Assembly: GCA_000004985.1 (NCBI GenBank)
Contig: GG738933.1
Origin: Naegleria gruberi
Taxonomy: Eukaryota
DNA length: 64,000 nucleotides
Strand: one strand, 5' to 3'
Below are positions 56,961-64,000 of this stretch, piece by piece; positions within the stretch are counted from its first letter, which is position 1, and the number at the start of each line of letters is the position of its first letter. Both the position numbers and the translations under genes were made by a program. The notes beneath the pieces are model-generated. The model saw only the letters and a program-made list of their open reading frames with translations, was not told where the DNA came from and ran no database searches.

Positions 56961-59894
56961 TTACTTAATTTGGTAGAGTCTCCAATCGATTAAAGTACTT
57001 GTGTTGATTGAATGCCAGATCCACTCAGAAGAAACTACATTGACTTGTGGATTTTCTGAAACAAGTTTGGCAATCTCTGGTGTAATTCTCGATGATGATG
57101 TGATAATATGAGTGATATCATCACTAAATGATGATTCTACAATTCCATCAAATGCAATAATATATCTAGTGTGCATCTTGAGAGCAGGAACATCCTTATG
57201 AATGTACATGACCATATCAGTGAATAAATCACACAATGAAGTAAGTTCTGGTGGTGCAGTGAGAGAGGAGCTTTCTGCTTTCACTATTGTTGGTTTAACA
57301 AGTTGAGCCTTCTTGGTAGGATAATGATATGGTAATGTATCAACCAAATATCCTTTGGTGGCACATTCAAAGACCCAATATTTGGTAACAATGAGAGATC
57401 CAAGATTGAAACAATGTTTAAAATCTTCAGTTTCTGATTCACAAATGAGGTGAGTATTTGCATTTCCAATAATGTTCCAATTATTTGTTACACTTCCTCC
57501 ATTGTTGGTGATAAACTTGCTAATTGCCTCCTTCTCAGAATTGCTGTAACCAGAAATTAAAGCAACAACATTTCTGAAAAAAGTGTTATTGCTGGAACTA
57601 TCTTGCTCTTCAACTTTGATTGATGTTTGTGAAGATGATTTGGTCATCTTATTTGTTGATGTTGTTGGAGCATTATCATCAGATGTATCCATCTTATGAG
57701 ATGAATCTGAGGCAGCAGCCGAGTTATCAGTTGTAGGTCTATTAGCCAACTTATTTTTTGATTCATTAACTCTATCCTTATCATCTCTATCCTTTGTATA
57801 GATGAAAACAGCAAATCCCTTGTTTGAAAGATTTTCCTTCAAAAGTTGTTCAACTCTATTCCAATCCAAACCAGAAATGGCGTGATGCAATCTATATAAA
57901 TGGAATGTACCAATCTTTTTTTGATTCATGTAGGTAGCACATTTCTTTAAACATTCATCCAAAGCATGATAGTCAACTTTTGGTGCAGATCCTTTCTTGA
58001 CAAATTGAAGACATACCATATTACATAAATGATTTGGTAATGCTACAACAATTTGAGCATCACCAATTATGTTCATATCATCAGTGTAAGCCTTCTTAAT
58101 ATCTTCACCATACAAGAGTTCAATATTTCCCATTGATCCTTTATCTGACCATCTACTAGAGTCATCTACACAATGTGAAATTAGTTTTTCTTCCTTATTC
58201 ATTGGCATTTTCATAAAATCACCATAAATGTAATAGATTTGTTCTGGAGTAGAAGAGTTATTAATAGTATCAATATCAGATAATTTGATACCAATAGTTG
58301 ACTTTTTAGCTTTCTTTGCTTTTGGATCATCATCATCATCAGAATTATCTGAGGATTTTGATTTTTTCTTATCATTAGGCTTTTTAGCTGACTTTTTATC
58401 ATCCTCATCATCTTCATCATCTGAGGAATTTATCTTCTTCTTTCTTGAATTTTTCTTTTTCTTTGAGCTTGAATCTGATTCATCATCTTCATCATCAGAT
58501 TTTGACTTTTTAGCTCTGGAACGTTTCTTTTTATCTTTTACATCTACACTTTCATCAGAATCATCTCCTGCATCTCCATCTCCAAAAATAGGTACTAAAC
58601 CTTTTCTATTACTTTCATTTTTCAATTTGATAATTTCTTGATAATTGGTATGATCTAAAACATCCTTATCATCTCTAATTTTTGTAACTCTAGGGAATCT
58701 GACAGAAATTGGTCTGTCTTTTCTTGAGGAAACTGAAAATTCAGCTCCTTGAATTTCCCAAACAACACTCTTTTTTGGATCTTTAACAATAAAATCAGGT
58801 ACAAGAGCATTAGTATGAATATCAATATCATCTGGAACCAATGAAGGATCCTTACTGATTCTTTTCATATTTGATTTCAATTCTTCATTCAATGTTTCAA
58901 TAGTTTGATCATCGTGTCCGTTACCACATTTACAAATAATTCTCCACTTTCCTAATTTCTTGTCAAAAGAACCCATCATGAATACAGACATTAAACCACC
59001 TTTACTACCTGTACCAAGATAAGCTCCTAGAACAACAAGATCTACACTATCTGCCATACCTTTCAAGTAATCTTTTTTCATTTTAAGCCAATGTCTAGCA
59101 TTAGGTTCATATGGAGAACATAAATCTTTTAACTAATATGTAAAATTGTTAATAAAAAAATTAATAATAAATTTGAAAATAATACATACCACTAAACCTT
59201 CTTCACCCTTCTTAATCATTGCACTCATTTCAGCAGAAACAATAGCTTCTCTTGTTTGTTTTGAACCCTTTACAACCAAATATTCACCTAACATTACTCT
59301 ATGTTTGATTGGATTTACAATTTTAGTCATTAATGCCTTTCTCTTATATAAAGGAACTGAAAGGAGTGATTTACCATTATAATACAATATATCAAATAAA
59401 AATATAGTTGTTACAGCATCTTTGTGATCTTGTCTAACATTTTTACCAAGTGTACCAAATGGAAGAATCTTATTTGTCTTTGTATCCATCATTAAAATTT
59501 CACCATCTAAAATTACAGATTCAACCTTTTCCTTAATAGCTTTAGAAATATACTTTTTTACAGATTTGATCTTATACTCTTGAACATCTTTCAAATTTCT
59601 ACTAAAATATTTGATTTCATCATTTTTTCTATCATAGTGAATTTGAATTCTTTCACCATCATATTTAAGTTCAGAATAAAAACCATTTGGACAACGAGCA
59701 ATAACATCATCATAAGTCTTACTTGGACGAGCAAGCATTGGTTTGACAGGATGGAAAAGTTTCATCTTGGTTGATATTTTAATCTTCTTAGGAGCCTTCT
59801 TATTCTTCTTTTTCTTTTTAGAATCATCCTCTGATTCTTCATCTACAAGTTCATCATCCCATGATGAAGATGTCACCAAAACAGATAAATCCAA
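56961..59894 (-). CDS. ATP-dependent DNA ligase with an adenylation (NTase) domain, OB domain, acidic/Lys-rich linker, TARG1-like macro domain and two BRCT domains. Intron 59133..59189. No DNA-binding domain is encoded upstream; the first in-frame ATG is at 59765 and the open frame continues to 59894 without an ATG.
   Basis: KPMLA; motif I ELKYDGERIQIH; motif IV EGLVVK; motif V DLVVLGAYLGTGSKGG; motif VI ISVRFPRVTKIRDDKD. Macro domain GDFMKMP...LISHCVDDSSRW..GSMGNIE...HHAISGLDWNRVEQLLKE, compared with TARG1 GDLF...LAHCISEDCRMGAGIA...IGCGLDRLQWENV. BRCTs VALISGYSNSEKEAISKFITNNGG...W and LFTDMVMYIH....W. Confidence 0.8.
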
Positions 59895-60187
59895 TGTAGG
59901 TTGTATTTAAATCAATTAATTAACTTTTCAAAAGGATGTTCGACATCCAAACAATTTGATTGTGGAAGTATACAAACATGATGATCCTAATGTTTTCAAA
60001 TTATTGGAAGAAAATACGAAGAGAGAGAACAAGCCTTCCTCTACAATTAAAATTGACTGGGATAAATTCAAGTTTGTTCCAAATAATAATTCAATTCCCA
60101 AAAATCAAAACAAGATGAAGAGAAATATTAAATAAATCAAATAATATTAATTCACTGCACTATTGATTTACTCAACCCAACTAAAAA

Positions 60188-61645
60188 ATGACCAGTAAGC
60201 AATCCTCCAATCCGTTGATGAAAGAATACAAGCTCTTTGTAAATGCCAAGGCTAAGAACTTGCTTATAGAAGGTGTCTTGTATTCACTGGATCCATCAGT
60301 TCCGATACAGGTTACAAAAGTAAGTTTAAAGAGTTTGAAAGTATTAATATGTTGAAGGTTGGTTCCAAGAAGAAGTCTTCTCCAATTGAAAAGAAGGAGG
60401 GAAAGTCATCAAGAGAGAATAGATCAGGTAAGGCATCCTCAAGCAGGAGAAATCAAAAAGAAGAAGAGGAATTATCCATTGAGGAGGAAGATGATGTATT
60501 CTCTGAGGAAGATGAGATCATTTCAAGCAAATTAGGTAAAGTTTCCAAGAAGAAGCCCTCTTCAGGTAGTAAGGAGGTAAGTTTCATTTTTGAGGGAGCC
60601 TCAATTATTGTTTTTCATTTTTGTGATAAGAGATTGAATGGTATAGGTAAGGTGTCTGAGAAGAAGCCCTCTTCAGGTAGTAAGGAGGTAAGTTTTATTT
60701 TTGAGGGAGCCTCAATTATTGTTTTTCATCCATGTTGATGAAGAAGAAGAAGAAGAAGACCATTGCCCCAAGTAATGTTCCTCCTTCTAGTAAGACCTCT
60801 ATTAAGAGAAAGGTAAGTTATCATTTGATTGGTATATAAATTAACCGTGCTAGAATCAACAAGAAGGTGAATTGGCCAAGGAAGGGAGTGATGGCATCCA
60901 ATTTGACTCTGAAGAATCAGAGCCATCACAAAAGAAGAAAAAGAAGGATGGTGAATTAGAGGATTGGAGGAAGGACAAGGTAAGTTGTACATTGTTGATC
61001 ATTTGTTAAAATAACACAACTCCCAAGAGATTAACTTCTCTGAAAGCAAAGCTACTGGAATCTATGCATCACTTTCCAACCATTAAAGAGATTTCAAATT
61101 TCTTATTGAAGGAGCGTCCTACTGGTTTGGCAGACATTTTTTTGGGCTCATTGAAGGTGGTGGATGGGTTAGCATCACTTCACATCATGATGCAAAACCT
61201 CTCATATTTGAGACTCTTCATGGATTTGGGAGACCAGTACTTTAAGAGTACTTTGCACGGCAAGAAGGGAGATTTTATAAGGGAGCATTGCCCTCACATG
61301 AATCCCACAAAAGCAGTGAAGGTTTTGTTTTTAGGCATGTTGTTAGATAGATTTCCACTGTTGCTGCCAGTATCCCTCGATTACTCCCTGTTCGGATCTG
61401 AGAAGATGGTGAAGAATATTACCATCTACTTTTTGGAACAAAACTTTGGGAGGGAAGAGTCTGGCAAGTTTTGGAATGAATTGAAAAAAGCTGTTGTGAG
61501 CTCAAGTTCTGAAAATCGTTCTGAAAATCCAGTTGGTTCTGCATCGGATGGCACTACTGATATTCCTCCAATTATTGAGGATGATGAGATTGATATTGAT
61601 TGGGAAGATCTCAACATGTTGGATGACATGGAACAAGAAGAATAA
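60188..61645 (+). CDS. Lys/Glu/Ser-rich nuclear-type protein with a conserved acidic-tailed C-terminal domain. At least 6 exons, for example 60188..60319, 60358..60577 and 60647..60688, with a terminal exon ending at 61645. Family not identified.
   Basis: Series of GTAAGT donors with in-frame junctions. C-terminal exon LLESMHHFPTIKEISNFLL...IDIDWEDLNMLDDMEQEE. Confidence 0.55.
60535..60729 (+). repeat. Tandem duplication, about 112-bp period, of a 42-nt micro-exon plus the start of its intron (units 60535..60618 and 60647..60729).
   Basis: ggtaa[ag]gt[tg]tc[ct]?agaagaagccctcttcaggtagtaaggaggtaagttt[ct]atttttgagggagcctcaattattgtttttcat occurs twice. Confidence 0.7.
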
Positions 61646-61788
61646 TTACTTTGTTGTTCTTCGTTTTGTTGAGATACTTCATTGTATAAATTATTATCTT
61701 GTGTAGTCTTTCGCTTTCTTCCTCCAGAGTTTCTATCTTGTGTGGAAGACTTCCGTTTATTTCCTGTCATAATTTTAAAAAATGTTTA

Positions 61789-62892
61789 TTAAATAAAGTC
61801 AATAATATTTTGTTCAAATTGAAATTTTTGTTCAAGATTATTTGAAAATAAATTGATAATATTTGTCAAGTTTTGTACTAATAACTTTTTTAAAGTTATT
61901 GGATATAAAACTAAAATTGGAAACTTAACAATTAAATATCCAATTTGGCTCTCGTTTTTGTAATTACCATATTGTTTACCATCAAAGCCTGCTTCTTCAA
62001 AAGCTTTCTTTTTCTTACCATGATCTAGAGACTTAATTTTCGTAAATAAAATATAAAGTAATATATATCTTGCATTAGTTAAAATATTCATATTATCATC
62101 CATTGTGTTTGAAAATTCTCTAATAATGTCAGTACAATTCTGACGAGTCATAGTTAATATCTTTTGTTTGACTGAATGAATATTAATGCTTTTAAGTGAT
62201 GCTATTTTGTTAACAATATCTTCAAAAGTAATTGTTTCCTTGTTAATATCTTGGATTAGATTATAATAGTATTGTTCATATTCTGGTTTCTTATTTGCTT
62301 TAGAATTATTAAATTCTTGAATTAACTCTTCTGCATCTACATCTGATGTCCAAGAATTTTCACTTTCTGGAAAATCCTTCCATTTGACCAAATAATTAGT
62401 TTTTCCATTAATATCTTTTGAATCTAAAATTTTTTCAATTTCATATACATCCACAGGTTCACTATTAGTATTCTTTTGCTTCTTTCTTCTATTAGTAGAA
62501 TATTTCTTCTTTTTTGCGACTCTTGGTTTTTCATTTTTACTCTTTTCACTATTGTCATCAACTTGTTGTTCATTATTTTCAGCTTTCTTTTTATCATCGT
62601 CATCAAATTTCTCTTCATCTTCATCAACTTTTGGTTCACTATTTTTATCTTTCTTTTTATCATTCTCATCAAATTTCTCTTCATCTTCATCAACTTTTGG
62701 TTCATTTTCATCAATTTTGTTGTTATGATCATTTTTTCTTTTCTTGTTGTTATTATTAGTACACAAGTAGATTACATCATCATTACATTGATAATTTTGT
62801 TTAAAGCAAATCTTTTTTTCGATACCTCGGAATGAAATTATTATTTCTTCATCGGAATCCATAGGACAGACTGTTGTTGTTTTTGGAGGCAT
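61789..62892 (-). CDS. Chromodomain protein. The start was placed at MPPKTTT (62892); the track's extension to 62943 translates an A/T run.
   Basis: Chromo motif EPVDVYEIEKILDSKDINGKTNYLVKWKDFPESENSWTSDVD; acidic/Lys-rich N-terminal half containing a 22-aa tandem repeat. Confidence 0.65.
   Translation of the reverse strand: MPPKTTTVCPMDSDEEIIISFRGIEKKICFKQNYQCNDDVIYLCTNNNNKKRKNDHNNKIDENEPKVDEDEEKFDENDKKKDKNSEPKVDEDEEKFDDDDKKKAENNEQQVDDNSEKSKNEKPRVAKKKKYSTNRRKKQKNTNSEPVDVYEIEKILDSKDINGKTNYLVKWKDFPESENSWTSDVDAEELIQEFNNSKANKKPEYEQYYYNLIQDINKETITFEDIVNKIASLKSINIHSVKQKILTMTRQNCTDIIREFSNTMDDNMNILTNARYILLYILFTKIKSLDHGKKKKAFEEAGFDGKQYGNYKNESQIGYLIVKFPILVLYPITLKKLLVQNLTNIINLFSNNLEQKFQFEQNIIDFI
62594..62710. 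repeat. Tandem duplication of about 66 bp inside the chromodomain coding region (EPKVDEDEEKFD.DDKKK twice).
   Basis: tcatcaaatttctcttcatcttcatcaacttttggttcac repeated at 66-bp spacing. Confidence 0.5.
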
Positions 62893-63082
62893 TTTTTTTA
62901 AAAAATTTTTTAAAAAATTATTAAAAAATTTTATGCCGGGCATAAAAATATTTTATTAAAAAATTAAAAAATCTAAATGGAAAAAAATTACTAACTATAC
63001 GTTTTTAACATTCACTTTATTTTGTAATTTACAAGGAAACTATTATTTTTCTAACCGTGCAACAGTTGCAGAACAGTTCCAC

Positions 63083-63577
63083 TTATTTAGAGTGCTCCTT
63101 TATCATCTTTTGAACGTCTTTTCTTGAATAATACTTTCCATCTTCGAAATGAGTACTGGAAATTGTAATTTTGCAAGCTATTTCTTCTTGTTCAAGATCT
63201 CTTGGCGATCTAATACAGTCCAACACTGTTCTAAAGTAAGAAAGAGTTTCATTTTTATCATTCCCCTTCTTTCTGAAAATCATTTCTATTCTTCCAATCA
63301 GTAAATTCATCTTAAATGAACAGAATGAACGGAAATATGCGACCTTATGACCATTGACATTCACTTCCATGTGATCAGCAGAAACCTTGTCTTCTGATAT
63401 CAACGGTCTATTGGTAAACTGACACTTTAACTTGTTTGACTCAACCAGTTGAGCCAACTTGGAATTGTCATACTTTGGTGCCATTTCCTGATTACTGTTC
63501 TTCTTGGGAAAAAACGTGACCTCGATTCCATGTGAATTTGCTAATTGATTTTTGTTGTAACATTTATCGTGATCCAC
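63083..63577 (-). CDS. Hypothetical small protein. The track start is GTG; the first ATG gives about 134 aa (MAPKYDNSKL...).
   Basis: Open frame with a coding-like composition; no family recognised. Confidence 0.35.
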   Translation of the reverse strand: MDHDKCYNKNQLANSHGIEVTFFPKKNSNQEMAPKYDNSKLAQLVESNKLKCQFTNRPLISEDKVSADHMEVNVNGHKVAYFRSFCSFKMNLLIGRIEMIFRKKGNDKNETLSYFRTVLDCIRSPRDLEQEEIACKITISSTHFEDGKYYSRKDVQKMIKEHSK

Positions 63578-63657
63578 TCATGCAAAAAAAAACAAACAAT
63601 AACATGATTCACCTTAATGAATCCAACAACAATCATCAATACATTCATTGTATTGAA

Positions 63658-63673
63658 TTTCACTTGAGTGAAA
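63658..63673. promoter_or_regulatory. 16-bp palindrome TTTCACTTGAGTGAAA about 60 nt downstream of the DNA-binding-fragment stop; a possible hairpin or binding site.
   Basis: Perfect 7-bp arms with a 2-nt spacer. Confidence 0.3.
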
Positions 63674-63735
63674 CATTTCAAGGCTTTGAAATTTTGAAGG
63701 CTGATTTTATTATTTTACAAAATTTTGAATTATCA

Positions 63736-64000
63736 TTAGTTTATCAACGATTGTTTATTGCTTTGTTTGATCTTGTCAGTATCTCTCCACAAGTAGAGTC
63801 TTCCAACAATTTGTTTCAAATCATGTGTTAAAATATAGGATTGATAAGCATCAGAATGAAGTGCTGCTAATAAATATTTTGGTCCAGCTCTAATCTTTAA
63901 ATCTTTACAAATTATTCTACATATAAATTTCAATTCATCTCCAGTTAACTTATCATTTACAAATTTCTTAAAAGCACGAATTTGATCTTCTTTCTTTGAT
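63736..64000 (-). CDS. Partial CDS (N-terminus lies beyond the window): ATP-dependent DNA ligase N-terminal DNA-binding-domain fragment, LIG4-like. It ends at a stop at 63736.
   Basis: LTGDELKFICRIICKDLKIRAGPKYLLAALHSDAYQSYILTHDLKQIVGRLYLWRD aligns with human LIG4 [50 protein letters not shown], the segment immediately before KPMLA. Confidence 0.6.
   Translation of the reverse strand, partial: SKKEDQIRAFKKFVNDKLTGDELKFICRIICKDLKIRAGPKYLLAALHSDAYQSYILTHDLKQIVGRLYLWRDTDKIKQSNKQSLIN

Follow-up and report, generated by a model that had tools for sequence, protein, structure and literature searches.

How does a DNA ligase come to be encoded without an adjacent DNA-binding domain (DBD), when part of such a domain lies a few kilobases upstream on the same strand? 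The question is raised by a locus of Naegleria gruberi contig GG738933.1 (assembly GCA_000004985.1), of which we analysed one stretch of 64,000 nucleotides (hereafter the window). A preliminary description of this DNA had seen a LIG4-like ligase with an embedded TARG1-type macro domain and two BRCTs, and had offered three explanations for the missing domain: one gene broken by a rearrangement, a single gene with a giant intron, or two paralogs of which one had decayed. The answer that we favour, with reasonable rather than high confidence, is that the locus carries an orthologue of DNA ligase III (LIG3) equipped with a macrodomain that would read ADP-ribose, and that this particular copy is a recently rearranged duplicate or haplotype from which the DBD has been detached. 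Whatever its cause, the break itself is plain: the coding sequence is interrupted in the linker between DBD and catalytic core, 102 codons are lost, and a 3.95-kb block stands in their place.

Used as a query against proteins, the spliced ligase matched along its entire length, at 100% identity, the N. gruberi protein P0001 (XP_002669061, “ATP dependent DNA ligase”, 915 aa), whose gene sits on a 99,287-bp contig and which is the exact translation of 59765..59190 joined to 59132..56961 on the minus strand. The NCBI model starts at an in-frame ATG at 59765, seven codons 5′ of KPMLA, so that the earlier statement that no ATG is present upstream in the open frame does not hold. The 57-nt intron that divides motif IV has a counterpart at the same position in the orthologue from Willaertia magna. 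The adenylation domain matches the Pfam family DNA_ligase_A_M from end to end (E 1.4e-51, positions 1-204 of 204, covering 59741..59076), the OB domain matches DNA_ligase_A_C (E 4.2e-11), and ligase motifs I, III, IIIa, IV, V and VI are all found (KYDGER, ILDGEIL, FLFDILYYNG, EGLVLKD, WLKMKKDY and RFPRVTKIRDDK, respectively). The complete adenylation and OB core of the preliminary description is thus borne out, as are its two BRCTs by their Pfam matches (Table 1).

The type of ligase, however, had been misjudged. When compared with solved ligases, the core scores 412 bits against human LIG3 (PDB ID: 3l2p) and about 160 against both LIG1 and LIG4, and the DBD of a second N. gruberi protein (P0003, see below), taken by itself, scores 87 bits against the same LIG3 structure compared to 34 for LIG4. 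The last BRCT is LIG3-type, its matches in the PDB being the human LIG3 BRCT (PDB IDs: 3pc7; 3qvg) and XRCC1 BRCT2. DNA ligase IV is rejected on these grounds and the locus is the N. gruberi orthologue of DNA ligase III. Among solved structures human ligase III comes closest in its DBD, adenylation domain and OB fold alike, and it shares the full set of ligase motifs and the C-terminal LIG3-type BRCT. It differs in its PARP-like zinc finger (PF00645) at the N-terminus and in lacking a macrodomain, whereas the N. gruberi protein has a macrodomain and an additional BRCT, and precomputed Pfam annotation lists no zinc finger for it. The same annotation lists no PF00645 for P0002 or P0003, where the DBD begins at about residue 15; the zinc finger is a feature of animal LIG3s and not of the protist members.

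The nature of the break becomes clear from P0003 (XP_002669721), which is encoded on a 326,815-bp scaffold, has a full DBD, a 102-aa linker and the core in uninterrupted succession, and is 99% identical to P0001 across core and macrodomain. Searching the window with P0003 by tblastn places residues 135-199 at 63999-63805 and residues 302-984 at 59855-57753, and finds no match anywhere in the window for residues 200-301, that is, for the 102-aa linker. The upstream piece is 100% identical to P0003 residues 135-199 and covers the last 46 positions of Pfam DNA_ligase_A_N (129-174 of 174, E 6.6e-8), so the orphan DBD fragment ending in a stop, and the ligase body without an adjacent DBD, were both correctly recognised at the outset, though not as LIG4-like. 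Downstream of the break, P0003 and the body in the window are identical in register from residue 302/303, and the open frame at 59894..59856, above the remnant of the linker, has no match in P0003. About 306 bp of coding linker have been replaced by the 3.95-kb block, which holds three genes. Over 653 aa the two copies are set apart by five substitutions and a single indel, and neither has a frameshift. These differences lie at P0001 residues 378-484: the low-complexity linker holds the indel and four of the substitutions, and the fifth, N484D, falls two residues before the macrodomain. Among the three explanations first proposed, a single gene broken by rearrangement fits best, given that pieces of P0003 map to both sides of the block and that the linker between them is gone from the window. 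The proposal of two paralogs was right about a second copy, which lies on another scaffold, but not about decay, of which five substitutions and an indel without a frameshift give no sign.

Relatives of the ligase show the same undivided arrangement as P0003. The Willaertia orthologue (74% identity) is a contiguous 3.7-kb gene in which introns follow the start codon and interrupt motif IV at the conserved site, and occur nowhere else. P0004, P0005 and P0007 carry the DBD within a single polypeptide, and PF04675 is present in most of the best 120 matches to the spliced ligase, which we used as the set of LIG3 homologues. The DBD is contiguous with the core in P0003 and Willaertia; at the locus in the window the fragment lies 3.95 kb upstream and ends in a stop. 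Comparison of the locus with Willaertia gave matches for the ligase only and not for its flanks. A search for a DBD-only N. gruberi model, using the DBD and linker of P0003 as the query, gave a single match, P0121, a fragment from a different organism with 83% identity, and a degenerate 23-mer over the end of the DBD found nine loci in a metagenome scan, none with LIG3 homology, as expected of chance matches. On these comparisons the split is specific to this locus. Because the 99%-identical copy and the orthologues of the relatives all keep DBD, linker and core joined, we take one duplicate or haplotype to have been rearranged recently.

The second part of the answer concerns the stretch that leads from the OB fold to the BRCTs, in which the Pfam models themselves give no macrodomain match. 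It is separated from the OB fold by a Lys/Asp/Ser-rich linker of low complexity (58254-58664, minus strand). A profile made from an alignment of the OB-fold-to-BRCT segment from 24 LIG3 homologues (A1) matches several macrodomains in the PDB, the best being BT1257 (PDB ID: 2fg1; E 1.5e-32), ALC1/CHD1L (E 6.7e-28) and SCO6735 (PDB ID: 5e3b; E 1.2e-25), followed by TARG1 (PDB ID: 4j5q; E 3e-9) and Poa1p (E 5e-7). The N. gruberi domain as a single sequence has ALC1 as its best match (E 2.5e-10), with the motifs GD, HCVDDS-W and HL-R--HA--G--W in common. An AlphaFold2 (AF2) model built on A1 has a mean pLDDT of 93.2 and a pTM of 0.89, and when it is compared with the PDB using Foldseek, ranks 1-16 are all macrodomains and the lower ranks are mostly macrodomains and macrodomain-derived scaffolds. 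The matches to 2fg1, 5e3b, ALC1, TARG1 and DarG have E-values of 4e-12 to 1e-7 and TM-scores of 0.7-0.8 (top about 0.75). The model confirms that the segment has a predicted macro fold (three-layer alpha/beta/alpha), as originally suggested, though it is not of TARG1 type: as judged by the profile it belongs to the ALC1-like class, with ALC1/CHD1L, SCO6735 and BT1257 nearest and TARG1 further off.

Of the characterised macrodomains, that of ALC1/CHD1L (PDB IDs: 7enn; 7otq; 7epu) is the closest by sequence, sharing the three motifs given above, though it is fused to an Snf2 ATPase, which it controls, whereas the N. gruberi domain is fused to a ligase; to propose an autoinhibitory role for the latter by analogy would be pure speculation. 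TARG1/OARD1 (PDB IDs: 4j5q; 4j5s) has the same macrodomain class and fold and is colinear across the whole domain (Foldseek TM about 0.73-0.8), but is more distant than ALC1, SCO6735 and BT1257, and its catalytic Lys84 and Asp125 are not kept. In a profile-guided alignment based on sequence, for which the TARG1 sequence was checked against 2lgr, Lys84 stands opposite Leu567 and Asp125 opposite Ser612, with Lys571/572 four to five residues downstream of Leu567. In the LIG3 macro family at large these two columns are mostly Gln and Pro. On this alignment a TARG1-type catalytic dyad is rejected, and the ‘GLD’ once matched to TARG1 proves to be displaced from its register by three residues. Asp497, in the motif YGDF, lies opposite ALC1 D723 and TARG1 D20, the residue reported to contact the adenine of ADP-ribose (Ahel 2009; Gottschalk 2009). 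Since this Asp is kept and the catalytic pair of TARG1 is not, we favour a reader over a hydrolase of the TARG1 type, and the macrodomain is most likely a reader of ADP-ribose or poly(ADP-ribose) (PAR). Recruitment guided by ADP-ribose, one of two roles that had been envisaged for the fusion, is plausible, and the case for the other, removal of ADP-ribose in the manner of TARG1, is weakened by the absent dyad.

A macrodomain fused to a ligase has been described before. Searching Dictyostelium with macrodomain profiles, ALC1 being among the seeds, Gunn et al. (2016, J Cell Sci; PMC5087659) found in silico that an unannotated macrodomain protein is the DNA ligase III orthologue, and a 2021 review restates the ligase III macrodomain of Dictyostelium (PMC8529158). 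By sequence that fusion is homologous to the one in N. gruberi. The A1 profile matches the LIG3s of D. purpureum, D. firmibasis, D. dimigraforme, Tieghemostelium, Heterostelium and Cavenderia with E-values of 1e-35 to 1e-50, and among the best 120 LIG3 homologues it detects the insert in 34, its relative position unchanged, the carriers including Dictyostelium species, other dictyostelids, Physarum, Acrasis and Willaertia. Ligase III of Dictyostelium resembles that of N. gruberi in its LIG3 core, in a homologous macrodomain between the OB fold and the BRCTs, and in the lack of a PARP-like zinc finger; in both, the macrodomain is predicted from sequence. They differ in that one belongs to Amoebozoa and the other to Heterolobosea, and in that the DBD of the N. 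gruberi copy is detached by the 3.95-kb block. According to precomputed Pfam annotation, only one of the 34 carriers has a PARP-like zinc finger besides the insert, and the animal LIG3s in the sample of 120 have a zinc finger and/or PBZ in place of the macrodomain. Proteins of N. fowleri and N. lovaniensis are absent from the 120 best matches, though the Willaertia orthologue is 74% identical, and LIG3 may have been lost in these two species. N. gruberi possesses PARPs and several PARGs (PMC4245714), and there is therefore a PAR signal for the macrodomain to read.

Put together, the ancestral protein would have had, from N- to C-terminus, a DBD, an acidic/basic linker, the nucleotidyltransferase domain, the OB fold, a low-complexity linker, the ALC1-like macrodomain, a BRCT and the LIG3-type BRCT. 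The macrodomain would read ADP-ribose or PAR and so bring the ligase to breaks marked by PARPs, a task that would correspond to that of the PARP-like zinc finger, the PBZ motifs and XRCC1 in animal LIG3, and the partner of the C-terminal BRCT would be an XRCC1-like protein. In the rearranged copy the break leaves a DBD reading frame closed by a stop after 22 foreign codons. It also leaves a ligase body that can first start at Met59765, seven codons before the adenylation domain. Several points weigh against this explanation. The second copy was examined as a protein model, and this model leaves the ligase right after the macrodomain, so that there may be no wholly intact LIG3 gene; the defects of the two copies complement each other; a switch from one copy to the other could have occurred during assembly within the 2.1 kb that they share; ligand binding by the macrodomain is deduced from its homologues; and some members of this class of macrodomain are hydrolases even without the TARG1 lysine.

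The first three of these points lead to the alternative that has the most in its favour, though we still consider it unlikely: that N. gruberi has a single intact LIG3, perhaps together with a partial duplicate, and that a Sanger assembly misjoined near-identical copies or haplotypes. The copies are 99% identical and lie on separate scaffolds, Naegleria has been described as a heterozygous diploid (PMC9928731), and the defects are complementary, the copy in the window having the BRCTs and a broken 5′ part and P0003 an intact 5′ part and no BRCTs. Additionally, P0003 residues 985-1260 pass from the ligase, after the macrodomain, into a kinase without its N-lobe and then a truncated GST. Such a tail is what one would see in a model that bridges a gap, and it suggests either this or a switch of copies in the shared 2.1 kb; P0003 as modelled is almost certainly chimeric or spans assembly gaps. 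However, a switch within the shared 2.1 kb would alter the 3′ end and would not remove the block. The window is free of gaps, with no runs of N, and the two junctions (KQIV/GRLY and ...SSSWD/DELVDEE) join sequences that are single-copy in the window. As assemblers err at repeats, and the joined sequences have no second copy in the window, both junctions are probably real DNA.

It is less probable still that the macrodomain is a TARG1- or DarG-like enzyme that clears ADP-ribose from proteins or DNA ends before sealing. The structural class is one common to TARG1, DarG, SCO6735 and Poa1p, and SCO6735 has been reported to be active without the TARG1 lysine. In the ligase, by contrast, the positions of TARG1 K84 and D125 are Leu567 and Ser612, and mostly Gln and Pro across the family, and the nearest characterised relative is ALC1, which binds PAR and is not known to hydrolyse it. 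We give a slightly slimmer chance to a bolder combination, in which the macrodomain of protist LIG3s strips ADP-ribose from proteins or PARP-modified DNA ends at the break before the same polypeptide seals the nick and N. gruberi in addition expresses the body without the DBD. What keeps this in consideration is that the fold class includes hydrolases, some of them without the TARG1 lysine, and that both open reading frames are intact.

That the split is itself functional, yielding a DBD-only protein and a DBD-less ligase-macro-BRCT protein that act in trans or in separate roles, we regard as very unlikely. Both reading frames are intact and undegraded, the annotated model begins at Met59765, the DBD of LIG1 reportedly stimulates its catalytic fragment in trans (Pascal et al. 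2004), and the ligase of Chlorella virus functions without a DBD. Nevertheless the DBD is fused in every relative inspected (P0002, P0003, P0004, P0005 and P0007), the near-identity to the second copy leaves too little time for selection to show, and the break falls within coding sequence, where it adds a nonsense tail of 22 residues. Least probable of all is a conventional LIG3 gene with a 3.95-kb intron containing three nested genes, the remaining proposal of the preliminary description, because, though fragment and body share a strand and the correct order and a phase-0 GTTGGA donor after ...KQI could formally be joined in frame to several phase-0 AGs in the Lys-rich stretch, no consensus splice sites spanning the gap between DBD and core were found (the only GT sites from KQIV to the stop are GTTGGA, GTGGAG and GTTGAT, and the AGs upstream of KPMLA all lie within purine-rich coding sequence with no pyrimidine tract), all six local introns are 38-132 nt long with GTAAGT or GTATGT donors, the 102-aa linker of P0003 and Willaertia, which is not in the window, would be skipped, and Willaertia has no intron at the position of the break. 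We accordingly read the split as an accident at this locus, or in part as a fault of assembly, and neither as a designed two-part or DBD-less ligase nor as a giant intron.

Table 1. Positions in the window of the ligase gene, its domains, the two junctions and the genes of the intervening block
Feature	Position	Strand	Basis or content
Ligase exon 1	59190..59765	-	From Met59765; motif I K34, motifs III and IIIa, first half of motif IV
Intron, 57 nt, GTATGT...TAG	59133..59189	-	Divides motif IV (EGLV/LKD); sequence reading
Ligase exon 2	56961..59132	-	Motif V, OB fold with motif VI, Lys/Asp/Ser-rich linker, macrodomain, BRCT, LIG3-type BRCT, stop
Motif I KYDGER (K34)	59666..59649	-	P0001 translation
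OB fold with motif VI	59000..58665	-	Motif VI RFPRVTKIRDDK at 58700..58665
Predicted ALC1-like macrodomain (P0001 residues 486-646)	57771..58253	-	Profile, AF2 model, Foldseek
First BRCT	57363..57587	-	Pfam BRCT E 2.2e-12, also PTCB-BRCT
C-terminal LIG3-type BRCT	57000..57239	-	Pfam LIG3_BRCT E 2.1e-27, positions 1-77 of 78
DBD fragment, last 65 codons of LIG3-type DBD (SKKEDQ...THDLKQIV)	63805..63999	-	Reading frame runs past the end of the window
Left junction, 22 unrelated codons (GRLYLWRDTDKIKQSNKQSLIN) and TAA stop straight after KQIV	63736..63804	-	Identity to P0003 and Willaertia stops at KQIV
Right junction, remnant of DBD-to-core linker (D-ELVDEESEDDSKKKKKNKKAPKKIKISTK), in frame, 5′ of annotated start	59766..59855	-	tblastn homology to P0003 from residue 302
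Intervening gene 1, P0122 (XP_002669062), orphan, 133 aa	63083..63484	-	Exact match to annotated N. gruberi protein, 99,287-bp contig
Intervening gene 2, chromodomain reading frame, 384 aa	61789..62943	-	Pfam Chromo E 1.6e-11
Intervening gene 3, P0123, Lys/Glu-rich, 371 aa, six exons	60188..61645	+	Annotated N. gruberi protein, on the ligase's own contig
Open frame, 71 codons, no ATG	59920..60135	+	Acceptor-like ttttcaaaAG in front; adjoins right junction

The block that separates the two parts of the ligase does contain three real genes, as had been supposed: P0122 and P0123 are annotated proteins, and the third has a clear chromodomain (Table 1). P0122 found no meaningful match in 1.84e9 representative proteins. 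It was considered as an ADP-ribosyltransferase and rejected, the Pfam match to 2CompART being below threshold (E 0.07) and the single-sequence AF2 model having a pLDDT of 51, too low to be of use. The protein collection does not contain the exact sequence of the 384-aa chromodomain protein, nor did the search yield an N. gruberi model for it, and it seems to be absent from the public annotation of N. gruberi. Its reading frame contains a coding tandem repeat of 66 nt (62555-62726). In P0123, which has five introns of the form GTAAGT...AG (38-132 nt), the end of an exon and its intron are duplicated in tandem at 60533-60618 and 60644-60729 (plus strand), the units being 86 nt long and 94% identical with a period of 111 nt, and each coding for GKVS-KKPSSGSKE before a GTAAGT intron. 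A concatenated query of the block genes returned only P0123 itself and a generic chromodomain match; the genes are putatively lineage-specific, with no homologues detected outside N. gruberi by this search. The 71-codon frame beside the right junction, for which neither homologues nor a Pfam family were found, may be the severed terminal exon of a gene cut by the rearrangement. A transposon origin of the block is unsupported: it lacks terminal inverted or direct repeats and any tRNA gene, a second copy of it was not found in the window, and Pfam detected no transposase, integrase or reverse-transcriptase domains in its proteins.

The split matters chiefly as a warning about annotation and assembly: the 915-aa protein in public records is a fragment without its DBD, and in the P0003 model the ligase is chimeric, joined to a kinase and a GST. 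The locus deserves a corrected annotation, and does not represent a new design of ligase. Of wider interest is the fusion of ligase III with a macrodomain, so far mentioned only for Dictyostelium and uncharacterised, which now extends to Heterolobosea and to many protist LIG3s, and whose macrodomain can be placed in the ALC1-like class. In the sample examined, the module by which LIG3 would sense breaks or ADP-ribose appears to vary by lineage, being a zinc finger or PBZ in animals and a macrodomain in protists, which makes this family a clean case for how PAR signalling is wired to the sealing of nicks.

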